Source: a virus
Virus record (IMG/VR): IMGVR_UViG_3300035701_000023
Coordinates: 4,303 to 68,302 of that record
Reading direction: 5' to 3' (one strand)
Length of the DNA stretch: 64,000 bases
The translations under genes were made by a program, and so were the position numbers. The notes under the pieces were generated by a model. It ran no database searches. It was not told the DNA's origin and worked only from the letters and a program-made list of their open reading frames with translations. Shown here piece after piece: positions 2,417-59,974 of the stretch. Position 1 is the first letter of the stretch, and each line of letters opens with the position of its first letter.

Positions 2417-3172
2417 ATGGACGAATACAGAATTGACCCAACAATCGCTTACGATGTTGTTACCCTACCTTCGGGAGGAATCTACTACGAAAATAAAAAG
2501 AAATCAGTCAAAGTGGCATATCTAACTGCAACAGATGAGAACATCCTTTCTTCACCAAACTTGGTAGCAACGAATGGTGTTATCGATGAACTTATAAAGA
2601 GGAAAATTCTTGATAGAGACATCCAAGGTGATGATCTGATTGAGGAAGATAGACAAGCCATTCTTATTTTTTTAAGAAACACTGCTTGGGGTTCAGAGTA
2701 TAATGTATCAGCTATTGATCCAAAAACTGATAAAGAATTTCCATTTAAGGTTGATCTTTCGGTGTTAAAAACAAAAGAATTCAAACTTGTGGAGGATTCA
2801 AATGGGGAATTTCCATATCATTTTGAGAAAAGTAATGTGAACATAACATTTAAATTTCTAACAAGAAAACAGGAAAAAGAGTTAAAAGAATTAATAGATA
2901 GTTGGACAGATGAAACTCTCGGAGTTCCTCCACGATCATCCAAACGATTGGAAATGATGATCAAATCTGTTGCAGGTAGTCGGGATCAAATGAATATTCA
3001 TAATCTTATTGAAAGACTACCAATTAAAGATGCTCAAGATTTCAAGAAATTTGTTAATGAAAATAAACCCGGATTAGACTTAACCCAAAATGTAAAAACC
3101 CCGTCAGGAGATATAATCCAAGTTAATATTGGATTCGGGGTAGAATTCTTTCGCCCTTTCTACGGATTATAA
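2417..3172 (+). CDS. Tail/baseplate hub assembly chaperone (T4 gp26-like)
   Basis: Between tube and tape measure; VTLPSGGIYY, YLTATDENIL, DRQAILIFLRNTAWG and terminal GVEFFRP; upstream TACTTAT at 2393-2399. Confidence 0.8.
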   Translation: MDEYRIDPTIAYDVVTLPSGGIYYENKKKSVKVAYLTATDENILSSPNLVATNGVIDELIKRKILDRDIQGDDLIEEDRQAILIFLRNTAWGSEYNVSAIDPKTDKEFPFKVDLSVLKTKEFKLVEDSNGEFPYHFEKSNVNITFKFLTRKQEKELKELIDSWTDETLGVPPRSSKRLEMMIKSVAGSRDQMNIHNLIERLPIKDAQDFKKFVNENKPGLDLTQNVKTPSGDIIQVNIGFGVEFFRPFYGL

Positions 3173-24749: not shown

Positions 24750-24784
24750 ATAACCCGTGACGAATTGTCACGGGTTATTGTTTA
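24750..24784 (+). terminator. Strong hairpin terminator
   Basis: Perfect 12-bp stem ATAACCCGTGAC-GAATT-GTCACGGGTTAT then TGTTTA. Confidence 0.8.
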
Positions 24785-24816
24785 TTACCATTTTTCTATT
24801 CATTATATTTATTGAT

Positions 24817-25269
24817 ATGAGTATAACATATGGAGTAGATTATCCCTTCATGGACAGTCAAAAGGGAGATTTTTTAAAAATGACCGAAACTCCCGAAAGA
24901 GAGGTTAGAGCGAATCTGATTCATCTTCTTTTATCTAGAAAAGGTAGTAGATATTTTTTACCTGATTTCGGAACAAGATTATATGAATATATTTTTGATG
25001 AGAATGACACAGTAGTCTTCGGTCAAATTGAAGATGAAATAAGAGAATCTATAAGAAAATATATTCCAAATTTGGATATAAATTCCATAACAATAACATC
25101 GGCCGAAAATGATCCCGATGAACCTGTAAGTATTGTTGAGGGGGAAGATAATAGATTGTTTAGGGTTTCACAAGGAGCAACTAAACCATACACCGCAAAG
25201 GTTAAAATAGACTATACGGTAAATAACGGAGCATTTTCATCTTCCGACTTTATAATTATTAACATATAA
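24817..25269 (+). CDS. Baseplate wedge protein gp25-like (sheath initiator)
   Basis: NLIHLLLSRKGSRYFLPDFGTRLYEYIFD; ATG at 24817 follows TATTTAT 24806-24812 (the track's GTG start lies in the terminator). Confidence 0.9.
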   Translation: MSITYGVDYPFMDSQKGDFLKMTETPEREVRANLIHLLLSRKGSRYFLPDFGTRLYEYIFDENDTVVFGQIEDEIRESIRKYIPNLDINSITITSAENDPDEPVSIVEGEDNRLFRVSQGATKPYTAKVKIDYTVNNGAFSSSDFIIINI

Positions 25270-49778: not shown

Positions 49779-50597
49779 ATGCAGATAAAAAAATCTATAA
49801 CCCTAAACACCGAAGAATTTCAACAATACATAAAAGATTTAAAGAAAATACCAGTAATTAGCCACAAAAGGCAGGAGGAGATCTTTTTAAAACTTAATAA
49901 AAAAAATATTGATAAAACGGAACGGGAAGAACTTTTAAATGAGTTGGTGATTGGTAATTTACGTTTTGTGATTTCTGTTGCTAAAATGTATCAAAATCAG
50001 GGGTTAGATATACTTGATTTAATTTCCGAAGGAAATATTGGGTTAATAAAGGCATCCAAGAGATATGATCCAACGAGTGGGTTTAAATTCATATCATATG
50101 CTGTGTGGTGGATAAAACAATCAATCATTGCGTCTTTAAATGAATATTCTCGGACAATACGAATACCATCAAATTTAATTCAAGAGTCACAGAAACAAAA
50201 AAAGGGTAACGATAAATCCGAAGAAAATGATTTTTTCATAAAACCAGAAGATGAATCAAACGAAACTAATTTACCATACTGTGTTGGATTGAATAGTGAA
50301 ATAAATGAAGATGGTGATCAACTTATTGATATCATACCAAATAGAAATGCCGATAATCCTGAAAACTCATTAAATACTAAGGATGAGATAAAAAAGAAGG
50401 TATCATTAATGTTAAGTGTCTTAGATGAAAGAGAAAAAATCATTATTGAAAAATATTATGGATTGACAGGGGTTGAGTCAAATTTAGATGATTTGGGTGA
50501 GGAATTTGGATGTACAAAAGAAAGAATCCGTCAGTTGAGAGATAAAGCCATAAAGAAGTTACGAAACGAAAGTTTTACACTTCTTAAGTATTTATGA
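49779..50597 (+). CDS. RNA polymerase sigma70-family factor (Bacteroidota RpoD-like, no region 1.1)
   Basis: NLRFVISVAKMYQNQG, DLISEGNIGLIKA, GFKFISYAVWWIKQSI, RTIRIP, TKERIRQLRDKAIKKLR. Confidence 0.93.
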   Translation: MQIKKSITLNTEEFQQYIKDLKKIPVISHKRQEEIFLKLNKKNIDKTEREELLNELVIGNLRFVISVAKMYQNQGLDILDLISEGNIGLIKASKRYDPTSGFKFISYAVWWIKQSIIASLNEYSRTIRIPSNLIQESQKQKKGNDKSEENDFFIKPEDESNETNLPYCVGLNSEINEDGDQLIDIIPNRNADNPENSLNTKDEIKKKVSLMLSVLDEREKIIIEKYYGLTGVESNLDDLGEEFGCTKERIRQLRDKAIKKLRNESFTLLKYL

Positions 50598-55263: not shown

Positions 55264-55310
55264 TTTCTTTTTTTTAAATCCTTTTATATGTATATTAGTG
55301 ATGATAGATT

Positions 55311-55766
55311 ATGGAAAATAAACAGGATTATATTGAGCACATTTCACCAGATAATTATAAGAAGCAAATAGAAGTTTGGTATCGGGCATATAATATCAGT
55401 CGTGAGAAAACAGAACTTTTTCACGACTTTCTTATTTCCATATGTGAGTTGGTTAATAATACCTTTCTTGGAAAAGAAGTTATGGAATATGAAGAAGACC
55501 AAAAAAATCATTTTAATTGGTGTTGGGATAAAAATATAACCAATTTTGCCAAGGAAAAGATTTTCTTTAAAAACAGAGGTAATCTTCATGAGTATTTCTG
55601 GAATTTCTTTCTGGAAGGATACTATTTTCCGAAAATGGAAGATACCCCCATTAAATTGATGGATTATTTTACAAAACTATTTGATTTTAACTACATTAAG
55701 TCCAGATCTGAACTCGATGTTGTTATGGAAATTTACAAATTATTAGAACAAAACTTGAAAAAGTGA
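55311..55766 (+). CDS. Hypothetical protein
   Basis: 151 aa, aromatic-rich; TATATTAG element upstream. Confidence 0.7.
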   Translation: MENKQDYIEHISPDNYKKQIEVWYRAYNISREKTELFHDFLISICELVNNTFLGKEVMEYEEDQKNHFNWCWDKNITNFAKEKIFFKNRGNLHEYFWNFFLEGYYFPKMEDTPIKLMDYFTKLFDFNYIKSRSELDVVMEIYKLLEQNLKK

Positions 55767-55785
55767 TTTTTATTCCATATATTAA
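55754..55785 (+). promoter_or_regulatory. Host-type (early/middle) promoter
   Basis: CTTG-N20-TATATTAA upstream of the Hc1-like gene. Confidence 0.45.
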
Positions 55786-55803
55786 TATCAAAAACTGAAT
55801 ATT

Positions 55804-56016
55804 ATGGAATCATTAAAAACTATAAAAGAATTGGTGGAAAAGATGTCCGTCGACACCAATAAGGTTTATCTAAAAGGTAATAGAAGCGCATCCATCAGGG
55901 CAAGAAAATATGCTCAAGAGATCAAAGATCTCATAAAAACATTTCGTAAGGATATTTTAGAAGAAATGAAGAAACACGATACAAAAAAAGTAGTAAACCA
56001 TGATGGTGGAAATTAA
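55804..56016 (+). CDS. Histone H1-like (Hc1 family) small basic protein
   Basis: KGNRSASIRARKYAQEIKDLIKTFRK matches the GNKxAxxRARK...R Hc1 motif found in Bacteroidota and Chlamydia. Confidence 0.8.
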   Translation: MESLKTIKELVEKMSVDTNKVYLKGNRSASIRARKYAQEIKDLIKTFRKDILEEMKKHDTKKVVNHDGGN

Positions 56017-56179
56017 ATTATTTCTTTTTATATTAAGTTGCTTATATTCTTTAAAATATATTGTTCAATTTATTGTAAGATTAAAGGAACCAGACCCTAA
56101 ACCAATTGTTATTAACAATGTTTCTCAGGTATTATTATATCTTGGGGTGGCATATATAATAACATTTATATTAACTTAA
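56000..56179 (+). CDS. Small two-TM membrane protein (59 aa, below track cutoff)
   Basis: MMVEIKLFLFILSCLYSLKYIVQFIVRLKEPDPKPIVINNVSQVLLYLGVAYIITFILT; fills the gap between neighbouring genes. Confidence 0.7.
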   Translation: MMVEIKLFLFILSCLYSLKYIVQFIVRLKEPDPKPIVINNVSQVLLYLGVAYIITFILT

Positions 56180-56183
56180 TTTT

Positions 56184-56678
56184 GTGTACGAAAGTATAAA
56201 ACAATTACAACCGTATTTTTATTCTCTCCGGGAGATAAATAATAAAGTCAGTTTAGATATTAAACTTCCATTATCTTGGAAGTATGATGCCATTGTTTTT
56301 CCATATAAAGGAATAAACACACAAGTACAGGACAAGAACGATAAGTTTAATTTATTGTCTCTAATATCTGTAACAACAAAGGAAGGATATGATATGGTTT
56401 TAGCGTGTGCCACGGAAATAATATCAGTTAATAAGGATGAAGAAGAAAAACGAAAACTTTATGACTTAAAGATAAAAGAACTTAATTCATTTTTTGAACA
56501 AAAAGTCAACGAATTAAAAACATTATTTCAGAGTCAATCGCTAGAAGCATTAAAGGAATTAAATTATAAACCAGAAAATGAACGAGAAGATACACATAAC
56601 CCAAGCGTTGGATTGGTTGAACAAGGAGATAAAGAAGGACGAGAAGCAAGTACAGAAGAACAAGGAAAGAATGATTAA
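56184..56678 (+). CDS. Hypothetical protein with coiled-coil C-terminus
   Basis: GTG start; 164 aa. Confidence 0.7.
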   Translation: MYESIKQLQPYFYSLREINNKVSLDIKLPLSWKYDAIVFPYKGINTQVQDKNDKFNLLSLISVTTKEGYDMVLACATEIISVNKDEEEKRKLYDLKIKELNSFFEQKVNELKTLFQSQSLEALKELNYKPENEREDTHNPSVGLVEQGDKEGREASTEEQGKND

Positions 56679-56775
56679 TGAAATTAAGACGTTGGATAAA
56701 AACGAGATGTTTCCAACTCCAAAAAAAATATCATTCTTGGATAAGGTCTTTAAAATATTTGGCATAAAACAATGA
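56578..56775 (+). CDS. Hypothetical small protein
   Basis: 65 aa with amphipathic C-terminal SFLDKVFKIFG; ATGA overlap with the next gene. Confidence 0.6.
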   Translation: MNEKIHITQALDWLNKEIKKDEKQVQKNKERMINEIKTLDKNEMFPTPKKISFLDKVFKIFGIKQ

Positions 56776-57065
56776 GGGAAATTCTAATGAGAAGGGAAAT
56801 TATAAGATTTAAACGGTATATTGAACAATATTTAATTCATCATCTATTTGACATAATTAATATGGATGACATTAATGGTGAAATAAGTAACATGTTTGAG
56901 TTTGAAAAAATAGAGGGGGTATATAGAGATTCACCAGATGGATATCAAACCTATACGTTTTATATTCAACCAGCTGTTGCTGTTGAACATATTGTTATTG
57001 ATTTTACAATTGTGTCAAGTGGAATTATCAATAATCCTATTGATAATTTTAAGTATTTAAAATAA
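56772..57065 (+). CDS. Free-standing tail-sheath C-terminal-domain-like small protein
   Basis: RREIIRFKRYIEQYLIHHLFD and FYIQPAVAVEHIVIDFTIVSSG align without gaps to the sheath's RRLLLRARKLISAVSVRLLFD and IYIKPTRSLEFIELEFIVTPTG. Confidence 0.6.
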   Translation: MREILMRREIIRFKRYIEQYLIHHLFDIINMDDINGEISNMFEFEKIEGVYRDSPDGYQTYTFYIQPAVAVEHIVIDFTIVSSGIINNPIDNFKYLK

Positions 57066-57072
57066 AGTAATC

Positions 57073-57306
57073 ATGGAAAAGAAAGGCGACCCATTAAATC
57101 AATTGGCAATCATATCAGATCTTATTGAAAGATTAAATATCAACTCAGATTCAAACACTTTGGTTATTGGATTAAATAAAGTTGAATTCACTAAAGTATT
57201 TGATTTGATTCAAAAAAAATATGATAAGAAAACTGAGGCACCCGAAGACACGTTTAAATTAACAATAGGTGCTCTTGAGATTATCTTTAATATGAATAAT
57301 GTCTAA
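57073..57306 (+). CDS. Hypothetical protein
   Basis: 77 aa, converging on the minus-strand gene. Confidence 0.65.
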   Translation: MEKKGDPLNQLAIISDLIERLNINSDSNTLVIGLNKVEFTKVFDLIQKKYDKKTEAPEDTFKLTIGALEIIFNMNNV

Positions 57307-57925
57307 ACAACTCAGTTCTCTTAAATCCTTTAGACTCTAATAAATTATATAGTTGTTTTCTTTGGTAGGTAGTAACATCTTTTACGAATATAAAATTACC
57401 TCTTTTTTTTCTTGTAACCTCATCTTTAACAATTTCAAATAATCTTTCAGTATCGGCAATGTTTTTATTACCAAATAAGAGTATATCATTTTCGACCTGA
57501 ACAAATAATTTATTATTTAGTGTGAATATTTGGGCAATGTCATTTATTTTTAAGATTTGTTCCATCATAACATGATAACGGATTCTTTTTTTCTTTTGAA
57601 AATCGTAAACTAACTCCTCTTCCCAATATGGAATGATTTCCTTGATTCTGAATTTATTATTTTCAATTATTGCCTCTGTTAATCTACCTAAACTATCCCG
57701 AACATAAGTTTTAGTTGCCCATCTGTTATTGGGAAATATTAATGAGAGTTCATAAATGAGTTCTTGTTTTCTTTTATTACCTTGTAATTTTATATATAAG
57801 GGTTTTTTTTGTGTTTTAAACTCTCTCCAATATTCATATACGGTTGTTCTTCTCATACACCGGTACAATATCCTAACTCTCTTCTTGTTACAGAAAAGAA
57901 CAATAAAATATTTACCATTTTTCAT
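57287..57925 (-). CDS. Basic hypothetical protein (minus strand)
   Basis: 212-aa ORF with no competing + strand ORF. Confidence 0.8.
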   Translation of the reverse strand: MKNGKYFIVLFCNKKRVRILYRCMRRTTVYEYWREFKTQKKPLYIKLQGNKRKQELIYELSLIFPNNRWATKTYVRDSLGRLTEAIIENNKFRIKEIIPYWEEELVYDFQKKKRIRYHVMMEQILKINDIAQIFTLNNKLFVQVENDILLFGNKNIADTERLFEIVKDEVTRKKRGNFIFVKDVTTYQRKQLYNLLESKGFKRTELFRHYSY

Positions 57926-58083
57926 AATAATTTAATTAAAGAATAAATTCCGTATATTGCTAAGAGTGACCATATTATAACGAACCAAACCACTCCCCAA
58001 CTAAGGGTTGGTACATTATTAGAGATTTCCCTCTCCATCCTCTCCCTGAATTTATCTTTCTTTTTACAATCTGAACATCCCAT
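57922..58083 (-). CDS. Small CxxC membrane protein (53 aa, below track cutoff)
   Basis: MGCSDCKKKDKFRERMEREISNNVPTLSWGVVWFVIIWSLLAIYGIYSLIKLL; ATGA overlap with 57287-57925; TACTTAT 8 nt upstream. Confidence 0.75.
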   Translation of the reverse strand: MGCSDCKKKDKFRERMEREISNNVPTLSWGVVWFVIIWSLLAIYGIYSLIKLL

Positions 58084-58121
58084 AGTATAATATAAGTATT
58101 TTTTTTATATTTTCCAACCAA

Positions 58122-58153
58122 TTTCTTTTTTTGGTTTTTTTTATGTATATTTT
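58122..58153 (+). promoter_or_regulatory. Host-type (early/middle) promoter
   Basis: TTTC-N20-TATATTTT with T-rich spacer, just upstream of the Nudix ATG. Confidence 0.45.
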
Positions 58154-58158
58154 TTCAT

Positions 58159-58587
58159 ATGAAATACGTGTCGGGGTTTATGTTTAATAGGGATAGGTCT
58201 GAGGTGGCGTTGATTAAAAAAAATCGCCCAGAATGGCAGAAAGGGTTTTTAAACGCCATCGGGGGTAAAATAGAAGAGGGAGAACATGAAATAAACGCAA
58301 TGTGTAGAGAGTTTGAGGAGGAGACGGGGTTAAAAACGTATTACTATGACTGGAAGTATCTTATAAAGTTAATTAATAAAAATCCAGACTGGGAAGTTCA
58401 ATTTTTTAAGGGTAATGTCGAGGATTTTAGTCAAATCAAATCAATCACAGACGAAGAGGTTGTTATTATTAATGTTTCAAACTTAGAGAACGAAAAAGTG
58501 ATACCAAATCTTCATTGGTTAATTAAAATGTGTTTAGATGATGAGGTTGTTGGTGGCAATATTACAAATAAATCAAAAATAAAATAA
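58159..58587 (+). CDS. Nudix hydrolase
   Basis: Nudix box GGKIEEGEHEINAMCREFEEETGL. Confidence 0.92.
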   Translation: MKYVSGFMFNRDRSEVALIKKNRPEWQKGFLNAIGGKIEEGEHEINAMCREFEEETGLKTYYYDWKYLIKLINKNPDWEVQFFKGNVEDFSQIKSITDEEVVIINVSNLENEKVIPNLHWLIKMCLDDEVVGGNITNKSKIK

Positions 58588-58588
58588 A

Positions 58589-59431
58589 ATGATTTCATAT
58601 ATTGGTGGAAAGGCTAGAATCGGCAAATGGATCGTTCCATTTATCCCAAAAGATATAGAAACGTATGTAGAGGGGTTTTCAGGGATGTTCTGGGTCTTCT
58701 TTAATATGAACCTTATGGACTATCCAAATTTAAAAACGGTCATTTATAACGACTTTAATGGTCTTAACGCGAATCTTATGAAGTGTTCCCTTCAATATGA
58801 AAGATTGTGGGAAGAATTGAACAAATATCCTTGTCAACAGCTCGGAGTAGTCGACACCCCTAAAGAATATGGTGAATTATTCAGAACGTGTCAAAAAGAG
58901 GTTTTTGATCCGGGGTTTGTGGTTGGGGATGAACCAAATTTTGATGCTGCGGGTAAATATGTATATGTTTTAACACAGGTGTTTTCAGGATCTAAACCAG
59001 AAACCTCTACCTATACTGATTATAAGGGAAAATACCGTTGCAAGGTTCTTATTTTTATGGATAAGTTAAAACATCCCGAATATAGGAAACATTTTGATAA
59101 AATAACATTTGTGGAGAATAAAGATTTTGAAGAGGTGGTTGAAAAATACGATTCACCAACAACTTATTTTTATATGGACCCACCCTATTGGAAAACCGAA
59201 AATTATTATTCAAATCATGATTTTGATGCAAAGGATCACGAGAGATTAATTAATTGTTTAAAAAATATGAAAGGAAAGTTTGGTTTGTCTTATTATGAAT
59301 TCCCCAAACTTTTAGAATGGTTACCGAAGGATCTTTATCATTGGGAACAGAAAAATTTCAAGAAGGCGGCCGCAGCCAAGAAAGACGGGACGCAAAATGA
59401 GGGAACTGAATTGTTAATTATGAATTATTAA
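58589..59431 (+). CDS. DNA adenine methyltransferase (Dam/D12 class)
   Basis: SYIGGK, YVEGFSG, IYNDFN, FYMDPPY, ELLIMNY. Confidence 0.9.
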   Translation: MISYIGGKARIGKWIVPFIPKDIETYVEGFSGMFWVFFNMNLMDYPNLKTVIYNDFNGLNANLMKCSLQYERLWEELNKYPCQQLGVVDTPKEYGELFRTCQKEVFDPGFVVGDEPNFDAAGKYVYVLTQVFSGSKPETSTYTDYKGKYRCKVLIFMDKLKHPEYRKHFDKITFVENKDFEEVVEKYDSPTTYFYMDPPYWKTENYYSNHDFDAKDHERLINCLKNMKGKFGLSYYEFPKLLEWLPKDLYHWEQKNFKKAAAAKKDGTQNEGTELLIMNY

Positions 59432-59452: not shown

Positions 59453-59974
59453 ATGGATAAATTTTGGTATATTGTAAAAGTGCTACCGGGAAAAGAAAGA
59501 CAATTATCTGAGCAGTTCAACCAACAAATATTATTAAACAAAATAAAAAATATTAATAGATTTGTTTGTCCAACTGAACAGGAAGTTATTACATTAAAAA
59601 ACAAAAAAATTTTAAGAGAAAAGGTGATATATACGGGATATCTTTATTTTGAATCTAAAAAAAAATTAGATAATTTAGAATTGGAAGAAGTGGCTAATAT
59701 TCAAAATATTATGGGTATGATGGGGAATAAAACCCCTCAATTAATGAACGAACAGGATGTAAAAAAAATAATTAAAGATGAATTACTTGAAAACCATATT
59801 GAGTCCAAAAAATTGAAATATTTAACCGGAGATAAGATAATGGTATCAGATGGTCCATTTACCGGGTTCAACGGGGTAATTTCAGAGGTTAAAGGGGATA
59901 ATGTTGAGGTTATTGTTAAAATATTTGGTAGAGATACTAAAGTTTTATTAACTTCGGCACAAATTAAAAAATAA
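59453..59974 (+). CDS. nusG: NusG-family transcription factor
   Basis: WYIVKVLPGKE, YTGYLYFE, and KOW motif GDKIMVSDGPFTGFNGVI...KIFGRDT; TATTTAT 59436-59442. Confidence 0.92.
   Translation: MDKFWYIVKVLPGKERQLSEQFNQQILLNKIKNINRFVCPTEQEVITLKNKKILREKVIYTGYLYFESKKKLDNLELEEVANIQNIMGMMGNKTPQLMNEQDVKKIIKDELLENHIESKKLKYLTGDKIMVSDGPFTGFNGVISEVKGDNVEVIVKIFGRDTKVLLTSAQIKK

Follow-up and report, generated by a model that had tools for sequence, protein, structure and literature searches.

Can the domain on which contractile tail sheaths are held together also exist as a small protein in its own right? The question is raised by a 97-codon open reading frame (ORF) on the + strand of a 64,000-nucleotide stretch of viral DNA, hereafter the window, which covers bases 4303–68302 of the 68,302-base IMG/VR record IMGVR_UViG_3300035701_000023. 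Contractile injection machines, whether myophage tails, tailocins, extracellular contractile injection systems (eCIS) or type VI secretion systems (T6SS), all hold together through a handshake of beta-strands onto the C-terminal domain (CTD) of the sheath protein. A sequence-only reading of the window had described the ORF as a miniature, stand-alone relative of this domain set among small non-structural genes, and the description is upheld by the structural neighbors of the predicted fold, by a control model of the phage's true CTD and by profile similarity. Judging from the predicted models, it is quite probable that the product is a stand-alone, shrunken handshake-domain protein whose nearest relative is the sheath CTD. 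It would be a stripped-down version of the "handshake" domain common to sheath C-termini, gp25/TssE initiators and IraD, composed of two helices followed by a small antiparallel sheet, and devoid of the N-terminal arm and of the other domains of a sheath.

A Small, Intact Accessory Gene

This ORF is a genuine, undamaged gene of the accessory kind, carried by a jumbo phage with a contractile tail. CheckV puts the completeness of the source record at 22%, and the contigs of related phages reach 333,612 bases, which indicates that the record is a fragment of a jumbo phage genome of ~300 kb. The ORF is bounded by stop codons, its neighbors are unrelated small genes, and its GC content (27–28%) equals that of its flanks. 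Among the 5.8 billion clusters and 1.84 billion representatives searched, a single homologue, P0003, was found. This protein of 92 amino acids (aa) is 74% identical to the ORF product and aligns with it, ungapped, from the second methionine of the latter. Because P0003 begins at that methionine and a Shine-Dalgarno-like GAGGG lies 8 nucleotides (nt) upstream of its codon, ATG 56787 is the likelier start; nothing resembling GAGGG is present upstream of the first ATG (56772). The product is probably 92 aa long, and residues 85–97 of the ORF would occupy the position of the C-terminal arm of a sheath.

Predicted Fold of the Product

In the ESM Atlas, this very protein is present as a model (predicted template modeling score, pTM, 0.61; predicted local distance difference test, pLDDT, 0.67), seven of whose ten listed structural neighbors carry families of contractile machines. 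They include a viral 114-aa cluster of PF17482, the sheath CTD family (template modeling score, TM, 0.79 by query), and a 96-aa cluster in which 63% of the members carry PF17482 (TM 0.64), a further TM score to a PF17482 cluster being 0.72. The other family-bearing neighbors are gp25/LysM, IraD (PF04965), VipB_2, TssC and GP46. An eighth neighbor, a 522-aa cluster, has sheath domains in a minority of its members (PF17482 in 38%, PF04984 in 35%), and the remaining two have no family. The Atlas has no model of P0003 and lists no feature matches for the ORF or P0003.

A second model was obtained with AlphaFold2 from the alignment of the two sequences (pLDDT 72.7, pTM 0.68). In the best model, helices span residues 2–23 and 31–39 and strands span residues 44–53, 59–67, 74–80 and 86–92, the last strand and the tail being of low confidence. 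Foldseek, proposed earlier as a check against the sheath CTD and gp25, retrieved nothing from the PDB or BFVD at an expectation value (E) ≤0.001; IraD was found in the PDB at a probability of 0.75. VIA-align, with which 48,161 representative chains were searched and the top 50 compared, also gave IraD as the best solved match (6od1; Z 8.8, root mean square deviation (rmsd) 2.5, 86/97 residues, 5% identity). It further matched the model with TssE (6gj1_D, Z 7.2), the gp25-like 2ia7 (Z 6.5) and a cyanophage baseplate initiator (Z 5.1), and with the C-terminal regions of the sheaths of phi812 (Z 6.4, chain residues 424–579) and of the Anabaena contractile injection system (Z 5.0, 376–470). When Foldseek's top 999 chains were re-aligned, T4 gp25 ranked second and third (5iw9_A, Z 7.7, rmsd 2.8 over 81 aa; 5iv5_BD, Z 7.3), and the crystal structure of the DSY3957 sheath was matched at Z 4.3 (339–439). 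In these moderate-confidence models, the two helices and the small antiparallel sheet of the ORF superpose on sheath C-terminal regions, and the matches to T4 gp25, TssE and 2ia7 place the model, at middling Z, in the gp25 fold as well.

Because the Z values of the ORF are middling, the phage's true CTD was modeled alone as a positive control (31 sequences; pLDDT 78.4). Its helices (15–33 and 40–61) and strands (65–70, 82–89, 97–104 and 107–110) follow one another in the same order as those of the ORF. VIA-align matched the control with the phi812 sheath (Z 8.9), IraD (Z 8.6) and TssE (Z 7.4), and the lists of 50 chains obtained with the ORF model and with the control have 22 in common. The control, too, had no Foldseek match at E ≤0.001, its list being a mixture of sheaths, IraD (E 0.03) and T4 gp25. 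Inositol monophosphatases, PI3K segments, the pseudopilin GspK, pilins and PanC are neighbors of both models alike. The ORF model has fewer sheaths among its neighbors than the control (2 vs about 11) and more pilins, as expected for what would be a smaller and more diverged version of the domain.

The rank of IraD brings up another reading, in which the product is a repurposed handshake domain acting as a small adaptor or anti-adaptor for a host or phage regulator unrelated to tails. IraD of E. coli is itself an anti-adaptor that binds the response regulator RssB and stabilizes sigma S. PMC6546054 presents IraD as a stand-alone gp25-fold protein with a non-tail function, a precedent for such a protein acting outside tails. 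In addition to the structural and Foldseek matches given above, the setting and surface of the ORF agree with a regulatory role: it is surrounded by small genes of no known function and by Hc1 histone-like, Nudix hydrolase and DNA methyltransferase genes, a sigma factor and an antiterminator gene lie within a few kb, and its product is acidic (isoelectric point 5.0), unlike the basic sheath CTD (9.5). This acidity suggests an altered surface, and such a change would suit a new partner just as well, IraD being an example. Nevertheless, the true CTD matches IraD as well as the ORF does (Z 8.6 vs 8.8), so that the match reflects a shared fold only and carries no functional information. Besides the low identity to IraD, the motif EPRI, described in PMC6546054 as strictly conserved in gp25, IraD and HsiF at the helix-to-strand junction, was sought in the 97-aa ORF sequence and is absent. 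As no candidate partner is known either, we regard an IraD-like role as rather unlikely.

Distribution and the Phage's Own Tail Genes

Related loci were fetched by means of a conserved 212-aa gene on the opposite strand (57287–57925), which yielded 61 distinct IMG/VR loci. In all 61, the 77-aa gene to the right of the ORF directly abuts the 65-aa gene to its left, and the alignment of the junction reveals that the left gene continues into the beginning of the right one. A tblastn search of these loci with the ORF gave no homologue at E up to 10. Two small conserved genes flank the ORF, which is a rare and optional insertion of a single gene (Table 1). The survey of relatives that had been recommended alongside the initial description was thereby carried out and, with 61/61 relatives lacking the gene and one homologue in the databases, it identifies a strain-specific insertion. 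Given this absence, the ORF is neither an essential part of the tail nor a general timing regulator of this phage group.

Searches beyond the relatives gave a consistent picture of rarity. No fused form of the ORF domain was found in an all-length phmmer search of the 1.84 billion representatives. Two candidate relatives from that search, P0004 (866 aa, five stretches) and P0005 (1458 aa, four stretches), are tandem-repeat proteins and were rejected because their repeated hairpins add up. GenBank phages gave no match by megablast of positions 55300–58600 or by tblastn of the ORF protein. Scans of IMG/VR and JGI metagenomes based on the two-sequence alignment returned 144 and 198 pattern matches, respectively, none of which was confirmed, and a degenerate DNA pattern for the conserved nonapeptide had 0 matches in IMG/VR.

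The phage encodes its own sheath and its own initiator. Positions 3–1499 of the window hold the 3' part of the tail sheath gene (phrog_23, E 2e-51; PF04984 and PF17482), the full-length protein in the record being 940 aa long (L063:2979–5798, = G000:C1). The last 113 residues, which constitute the CTD, are 86–94% identical among the 120 relatives listed of 817 matches. The sheath is longer than in full-length relatives (803–828 aa), and aligning them takes 1019 columns, which points to an extra insertion in its N-terminal half. Downstream lie the tail tube gene (1810–2298) and the baseplate hub gene (2417–3172). The canonical gp25-like gene is recognized by PF04965 (E 1.4e-11; 44.5 bits vs a cut-off of 27.2) as well as by phrog_261 and phrog_43; given its presence, the ORF would be an extra handshake-fold gene and not the phage's initiator. 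The statement that the ORF lies 55 kb from the tail module is accurate for the sheath and tube genes; it does not apply to the baseplate wedge genes (24.7–27.1 kb) or the tail fiber gene (62 kb). Since structural and replication genes are interspersed across the window, this distance means little.

That interspersion, with the tail fiber gene 5 kb from the ORF, leaves room for a strain-specific minor component of the virion, namely an extra initiator-, cap- or decoration-like piece plugged in through the handshake interface. The evidence for the fold (ESM Atlas, VIA-align and CTD control) applies to such a piece just as well, and jumbo phage tails hold many extra small proteins, according to the phiKZ atlas. 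Against it stand the absence of the gene from 61/61 relatives with otherwise conserved tails, the canonical gp25 already present beside a wedge gene, and the immediate neighbors, which are small genes without structural annotation. A virion component is decidedly unlikely.

Sequence Similarity to the Sheath C-Terminal Domain

At the sequence level, the handshake-domain reading predicts kinship with the phage's own sheath. The two blocks on which the sequence-only reading was founded occur verbatim in both proteins, with 7/21 and 7/22 identities. By Smith-Waterman alignment (BLOSUM62, gap penalties 11/1), the ORF and the CTD score 60, with ORF residues 6–84 lying over CTD residues 15–107 of 113, that is, the whole domain in colinear order. 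This score was reached by 0/2000 shuffles of the ORF against the CTD (null 26.0 ± 4.4; z 7.5) and by 0/2000 against the full sheath (null 33.3 ± 4.5). P0003 scores 53 against the CTD (z 5.9; reached by 1/2000 shuffles). Both the ORF (60, next 44) and P0003 (53, next 46) match the sheath best among the 188 six-frame ORFs of at least 60 aa in the window (32,772 aa).

Profile comparison leads to the same domain. Using hhalign, the two-sequence profile picked the CTD out of the 821 match columns of 45 full-length sheaths (81 columns, ORF 4–85 with sheath 840–935, P 0.006), and gave P 1e-4 and a probability of 56% with a more diverse, 31-sequence alignment of the CTD. The observed scores, 31.1 and 25.3, were each reached by 0/200 column shuffles (nulls 11.3 ± 2.3, maximum 21.8, and 14.6 ± 2.6, maximum 22.6), and reversed profiles scored 11.2 and 15.5. 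Thirty unrelated real families, whose alignments were made from related phage loci, scored 6.0–19.7, all below 31.1, with a best P of 0.0064. The profile similarity singles out the CTD of the phage's own sheath rather than its gp25-like protein, with which neither the ORF nor P0003 has any similarity (z -1.6 and -1.2). The raw Smith-Waterman score of 60 alone is not decisive, and the sequence evidence by itself appears marginal; we conclude that the signal, weak as it is, is probably real and points to the sheath CTD.

Several observations weigh against a handshake domain. When the whole window is scanned, 11/400 shuffles of the ORF reach 60 (p ~0.03) and 37/400 shuffles of P0003 reach 53. A set of 2066 real six-frame ORFs taken from the loci of related phages (258,780 aa) includes one unrelated ORF that attains 61 with the ORF and two that attain at least 53 with P0003, the scores of such ORFs going up to 61–62. 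BLASTP assigns the colinear alignment (ORF 13–84, sheath fragment 401–486) an E of 1.7, while its best segment (E 0.024) falls elsewhere in the sheath, outside the colinear alignment. Pfam has no match for the ORF at E up to 10 or for P0003 at E up to 0.1 (as a scale for PF17482, the phage's own sheath fragment obtains 25.5 bits vs a cut-off of 26.9), PHROGs has none for either protein, and a profile search of PDB sequences retrieved no sheath or gp25, only two chance matches (E 0.69 and 0.97). The hhalign probability against full-length sheaths is only 6%, and the 31-sequence CTD alignment recovers the C-terminal block only (34 columns, ORF 52–85 with CTD 71–108). On the structural side, every ESM Atlas neighbor is flagged "under the bar: name no family", the AlphaFold2 alignment is shallow and 2/5 models have a pLDDT <50, none of the Foldseek matches in the PDB (0/231) or in BFVD (0/648) passes E ≤0.001, VIA-align itself calls its Z range of 7–9 middling, and the pseudopilin GspK (Z 8.0) and pilins (Z 6.5–6.9) match the ORF model too. 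Finally, two databases of billions of proteins contain just two such sequences, so that any role must be narrow, and an acidic protein would be no simple surface mimic of a basic CTD.

Taken together, such observations could describe an orphan alpha/beta protein of no relation, which resembles a handshake domain by chance in its helix-plus-sheet layout and its AT-rich composition. The missing family matches, the BLASTP value, the unrelated real ORFs with similar scores and the shallow models all agree with this, as do the pilins, inositol monophosphatases and PI3K segments that match at Z 5–8. These odd neighbors are, however, also neighbors of the true CTD. The spurious Smith-Waterman matches differ strongly from one homologue to the other (61 and 39; 52 and 62) and take in only part of the protein, whereas the sheath match is colinear over the whole domain in both, and the hhalign score exceeds those of 30/30 real families. 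A chance resemblance is, in our view, quite improbable. Because the ESM Atlas, the AlphaFold2/VIA-align comparison with its CTD control and the profile-profile similarity converge on one domain, the handshake-domain assignment is the best supported. Drawn from two sequences and shallow models, it offers a neat and testable reading.

It is very unlikely that the ORF is what is left, decaying and without function, after the 3' end of the sheath gene was partially duplicated: the ORF does correspond to the last sheath domain only, is extremely rare and is far more diverged than the CTD of the relatives listed, but the two known copies are intact over their whole length (74% identity) and have kept the hydrophobic pattern and the C-terminal tail, the gene is provided with a ribosome-binding-like motif and sits in a tightly packed operon, the predicted model is compact and folded, and a recent remnant would resemble sheath DNA whereas an old one would carry stops.

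A Possible Mode of Action

In PMC10457771, the CTD of a lower-ring subunit is described as the platform to which two subunits of the upper ring bind by their N- and C-terminal handshake strands. In the extended as in the contracted state of sheaths, the N-terminal strand of one subunit pairs with the C-terminal strand of its ring neighbor, and the paired strands augment the CTD sheet of a subunit in the ring below. Sheath proteins produced recombinantly often assemble by themselves into polysheaths (PMC6357053). A platform of 92 aa alone could not polymerize. A free, soluble copy would most likely bind the terminal arms of sheath protomers, an action that appears likeliest because the CTD is the docking platform for these arms in assembled sheaths. 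Alternatively, the product might insert its own partly conserved 13-residue tail into the platform of a sheath or of gp25. Either action would leave sheath subunits capped, sequestered or mis-nucleated. The target could be the phage's own sheath, in which case premature or off-pathway formation of polysheath would be dampened, or else the contractile tails of competitors (co-infecting phages, tailocins, T6SS), which would be poisoned.

Such a role is likely optional, since relatives do without the gene. The functions conjectured in the sequence-only reading were those of a chain-terminating inhibitor, of a timing regulator and of a decoy for defense sensors of tail proteins. A strain-specific insertion fits an accessory or conflict role, and fits other accessory roles equally; rarity and dispensability favor accessory or conflict functions only loosely. 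In a prediction of complexes between the ORF and sheath residues 1–110 and 690–940, the scores were 0.27 and 0.00, under the tool's mark of 0.32, which we counted neither for nor against an interaction. The full mechanism, a soluble handshake domain that binds or caps sheath arms, is put forward as a tentative possibility. Its more specific version, in which an acidic minimal platform acts as a dominant negative, capping protomer arms and blocking the contractile tails of rivals (myophages, tailocins, host T6SS), we hold to be unlikely; if true, it would represent a new class of inter-phage or anti-weapon proteins working by polymer poisoning.

What would such a protein mean more generally? 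A free, minimal docking platform encoded by an optional gene would be a natural reagent to cap or mis-nucleate sheath polymerization, and, if it acted in this way, a simple means, encoded in a gene, of inhibiting or regulating contractile tails. Such a protein would illustrate, too, how a structural domain is recycled into an accessory, possibly conflict-related protein, for which IraD provides a precedent in the gp25 fold. Generality is limited by the extreme rarity of the gene, with its one homologue in databases of billions of proteins. Even if the protein did not act on sheaths in this way, the locus would remain a clean case in which structure prediction with a matched control places an orphan that sequence libraries do not see. 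A non-exhaustive search of the literature, based on titles, abstracts and passages of text, brought up neither a diverged sheath-CTD paralogue standing alone nor an inhibitor of sheath polymerization encoded by a phage.

Genomic Setting

The coordinates of the ORF, of its parts and flanks, and of the two tail features with which it was compared are given in Table 1.

Table 1. Features of the ORF locus and of the related tail genes, in window coordinates.
Feature	Position	Strand	Remarks
Candidate mini handshake-domain ORF	56772..57065	+	97 aa from first ATG; probably 92 aa from ATG 56787
Shine-Dalgarno-like GAGGG	56774..56778	+	8 nt upstream of ATG 56787; read from the sequence
C-terminal tail, residues 85–97	57024..57062	+	Past the last core strand; partly conserved in P0003; low model confidence
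Single-gene insertion	~56763..57069	+	~300 extra bases holding the ORF alone, by comparison with 61 relatives
Left flanking gene, 65 aa	56578..56775	+	Kept in relatives; stop codon overlapping the ORF's first ATG
Right flanking gene, 77 aa	57073..57306	+	Kept in 61/61 relatives
Sheath CTD, last 113 aa	1158..1496	+	Nearest sequence relative of the ORF
Canonical gp25-like sheath initiator/baseplate wedge gene	24757..25269	+	Adjoins a gp6-like wedge gene

The expression signals ascribed to this region fared unequally. The reported lack of TATTTAT near the ORF is correct: no copy occurs on the + strand between 53842 and 59436. The motif is not enriched in the window (41 copies vs 50.7 expected). 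About half of the 22 + strand copies (for example 3305, 27144, 39552, 50589 and 53842) start 11–25 nt (in one case 42 nt) before a start codon, the codons concerned being 3316, 27156, 39564, 50602, 53854, 59453, 34600, 62032 and 1810. From its placement, TATTTAT may serve as a promoter or in the start of translation instead of marking "late" genes. As to the proposed host-type promoter, one 10/12 consensus match is indeed present at 55755–55783; matches of this sigma-70-like kind are not enriched across the region (20 vs 22.8 expected). An RNA polymerase sigma factor gene (49779–50597, +; phrog_351, E 2e-51) lies on one side of the small-gene region and a transcription antiterminator gene (59453–59974, +; phrog_6386, E 1e-19) on the other, and these phage-encoded factors bear on any claim about the timing of expression.

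Several other genes of the region deserve mention. An Hc1 histone H1-like gene (55804–56016, +; 70 aa; PF07432, E 2.2e-15, 56.7 bits) was found by tblastn in 61/61 related loci, mostly at ~61–85% identity. That a jumbo phage carries a nucleoid protein of chlamydial or Bacteroidota type may be a clue to the host or to DNA compaction. The Nudix hydrolase gene (58159–58587, +; PF00293, E 2e-8) has tblastn matches in 0/61 related loci, and in most relatives the methyltransferase gene and a 53-aa membrane-protein gene are close together without it. Lying within 1.5 kb of the ORF, the Nudix gene forms a second insertion specific to this strain. The ORFs at 56184–56678 (164 aa) and 56578–56775 (65 aa), both on the + strand, overlap by ~100 nt in different frames, and both frames have tblastn matches in nearly all relatives. 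This arrangement suggests true overlapping genes, a later start of the 65-aa gene or a frameshift product. Finally, the ORFs at 57922–58083 (-, 53 aa) and 56000–56179 (+, 59 aa) encode hydrophobic stretches like those of membrane proteins and are kept in most relatives.

Comparison with Known Systems

Databases of clustered proteins contain "mini sheath CTD" entries (95–198 aa, PF17482) of similar length to the ORF and with the domain to which it is assigned here. These small PF17482-only entries are 63–91% identical to the sheath CTD (120 listed of 184 matches), are located mostly on contigs of 0.5–5 kb, and none of those listed is intermediate to the ORF. As possible ORF-like paralogues they were rejected: on account of their identity to the CTD and their mostly short contigs, they are read as fragments of the sheath, that is, truncated or split calls of orthologous sheath genes. 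The entries P0128–P0247 measure 80–198 aa, with several clusters 94–96 aa long, and a few stand on long contigs (up to 302,742 bases), where they may mark split sheath genes. Split calls probably explain the top ESM Atlas clusters, and they illustrate how fragments of sheath genes can masquerade as stand-alone sheath-domain families in clustered resources.

With the CTD of genuine sheaths (PF17482), the ORF model shares two helices followed by three to four strands in the same order, and solved sheaths align to it at their C-terminal regions. Unlike sheaths, the ORF stands alone at 92–97 aa, without an N-terminal arm and without PF04984. The smallest sheaths described in PMC9230969 have 321–341 aa, and the sheath core needs both N- and C-terminal parts. 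The second helix and the loops of the ORF are shorter than those of the sheath CTD and the protein is acidic instead of basic. It also falls below the threshold of the Pfam profile, and its gene lies outside the sheath-tube cluster.

With IraD (6od1), the ORF has in common its best solved structural match and, through it, a precedent for a free, soluble binder of the gp25 fold; it differs by its sequence (5% identity, no EPRI) and by its origin, IraD being a bacterial chromosomal gene and the ORF a phage gene. The gp25/TssE initiators (PF04965) differ from the ORF in their profile match, their EPRI motif and the location of their genes beside wedge genes, and the ORF is absent from 61/61 relatives. 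gp25 homologues are required for sheath polymerization, according to PMC6546054, and these initiators offer sheath subunits a handshake platform. Like them, the ORF encodes a small, stand-alone protein of the same predicted fold, and on the strength of the models it is best described as a protein that would work like a gp25-type handshake platform while being no member of PF04965.

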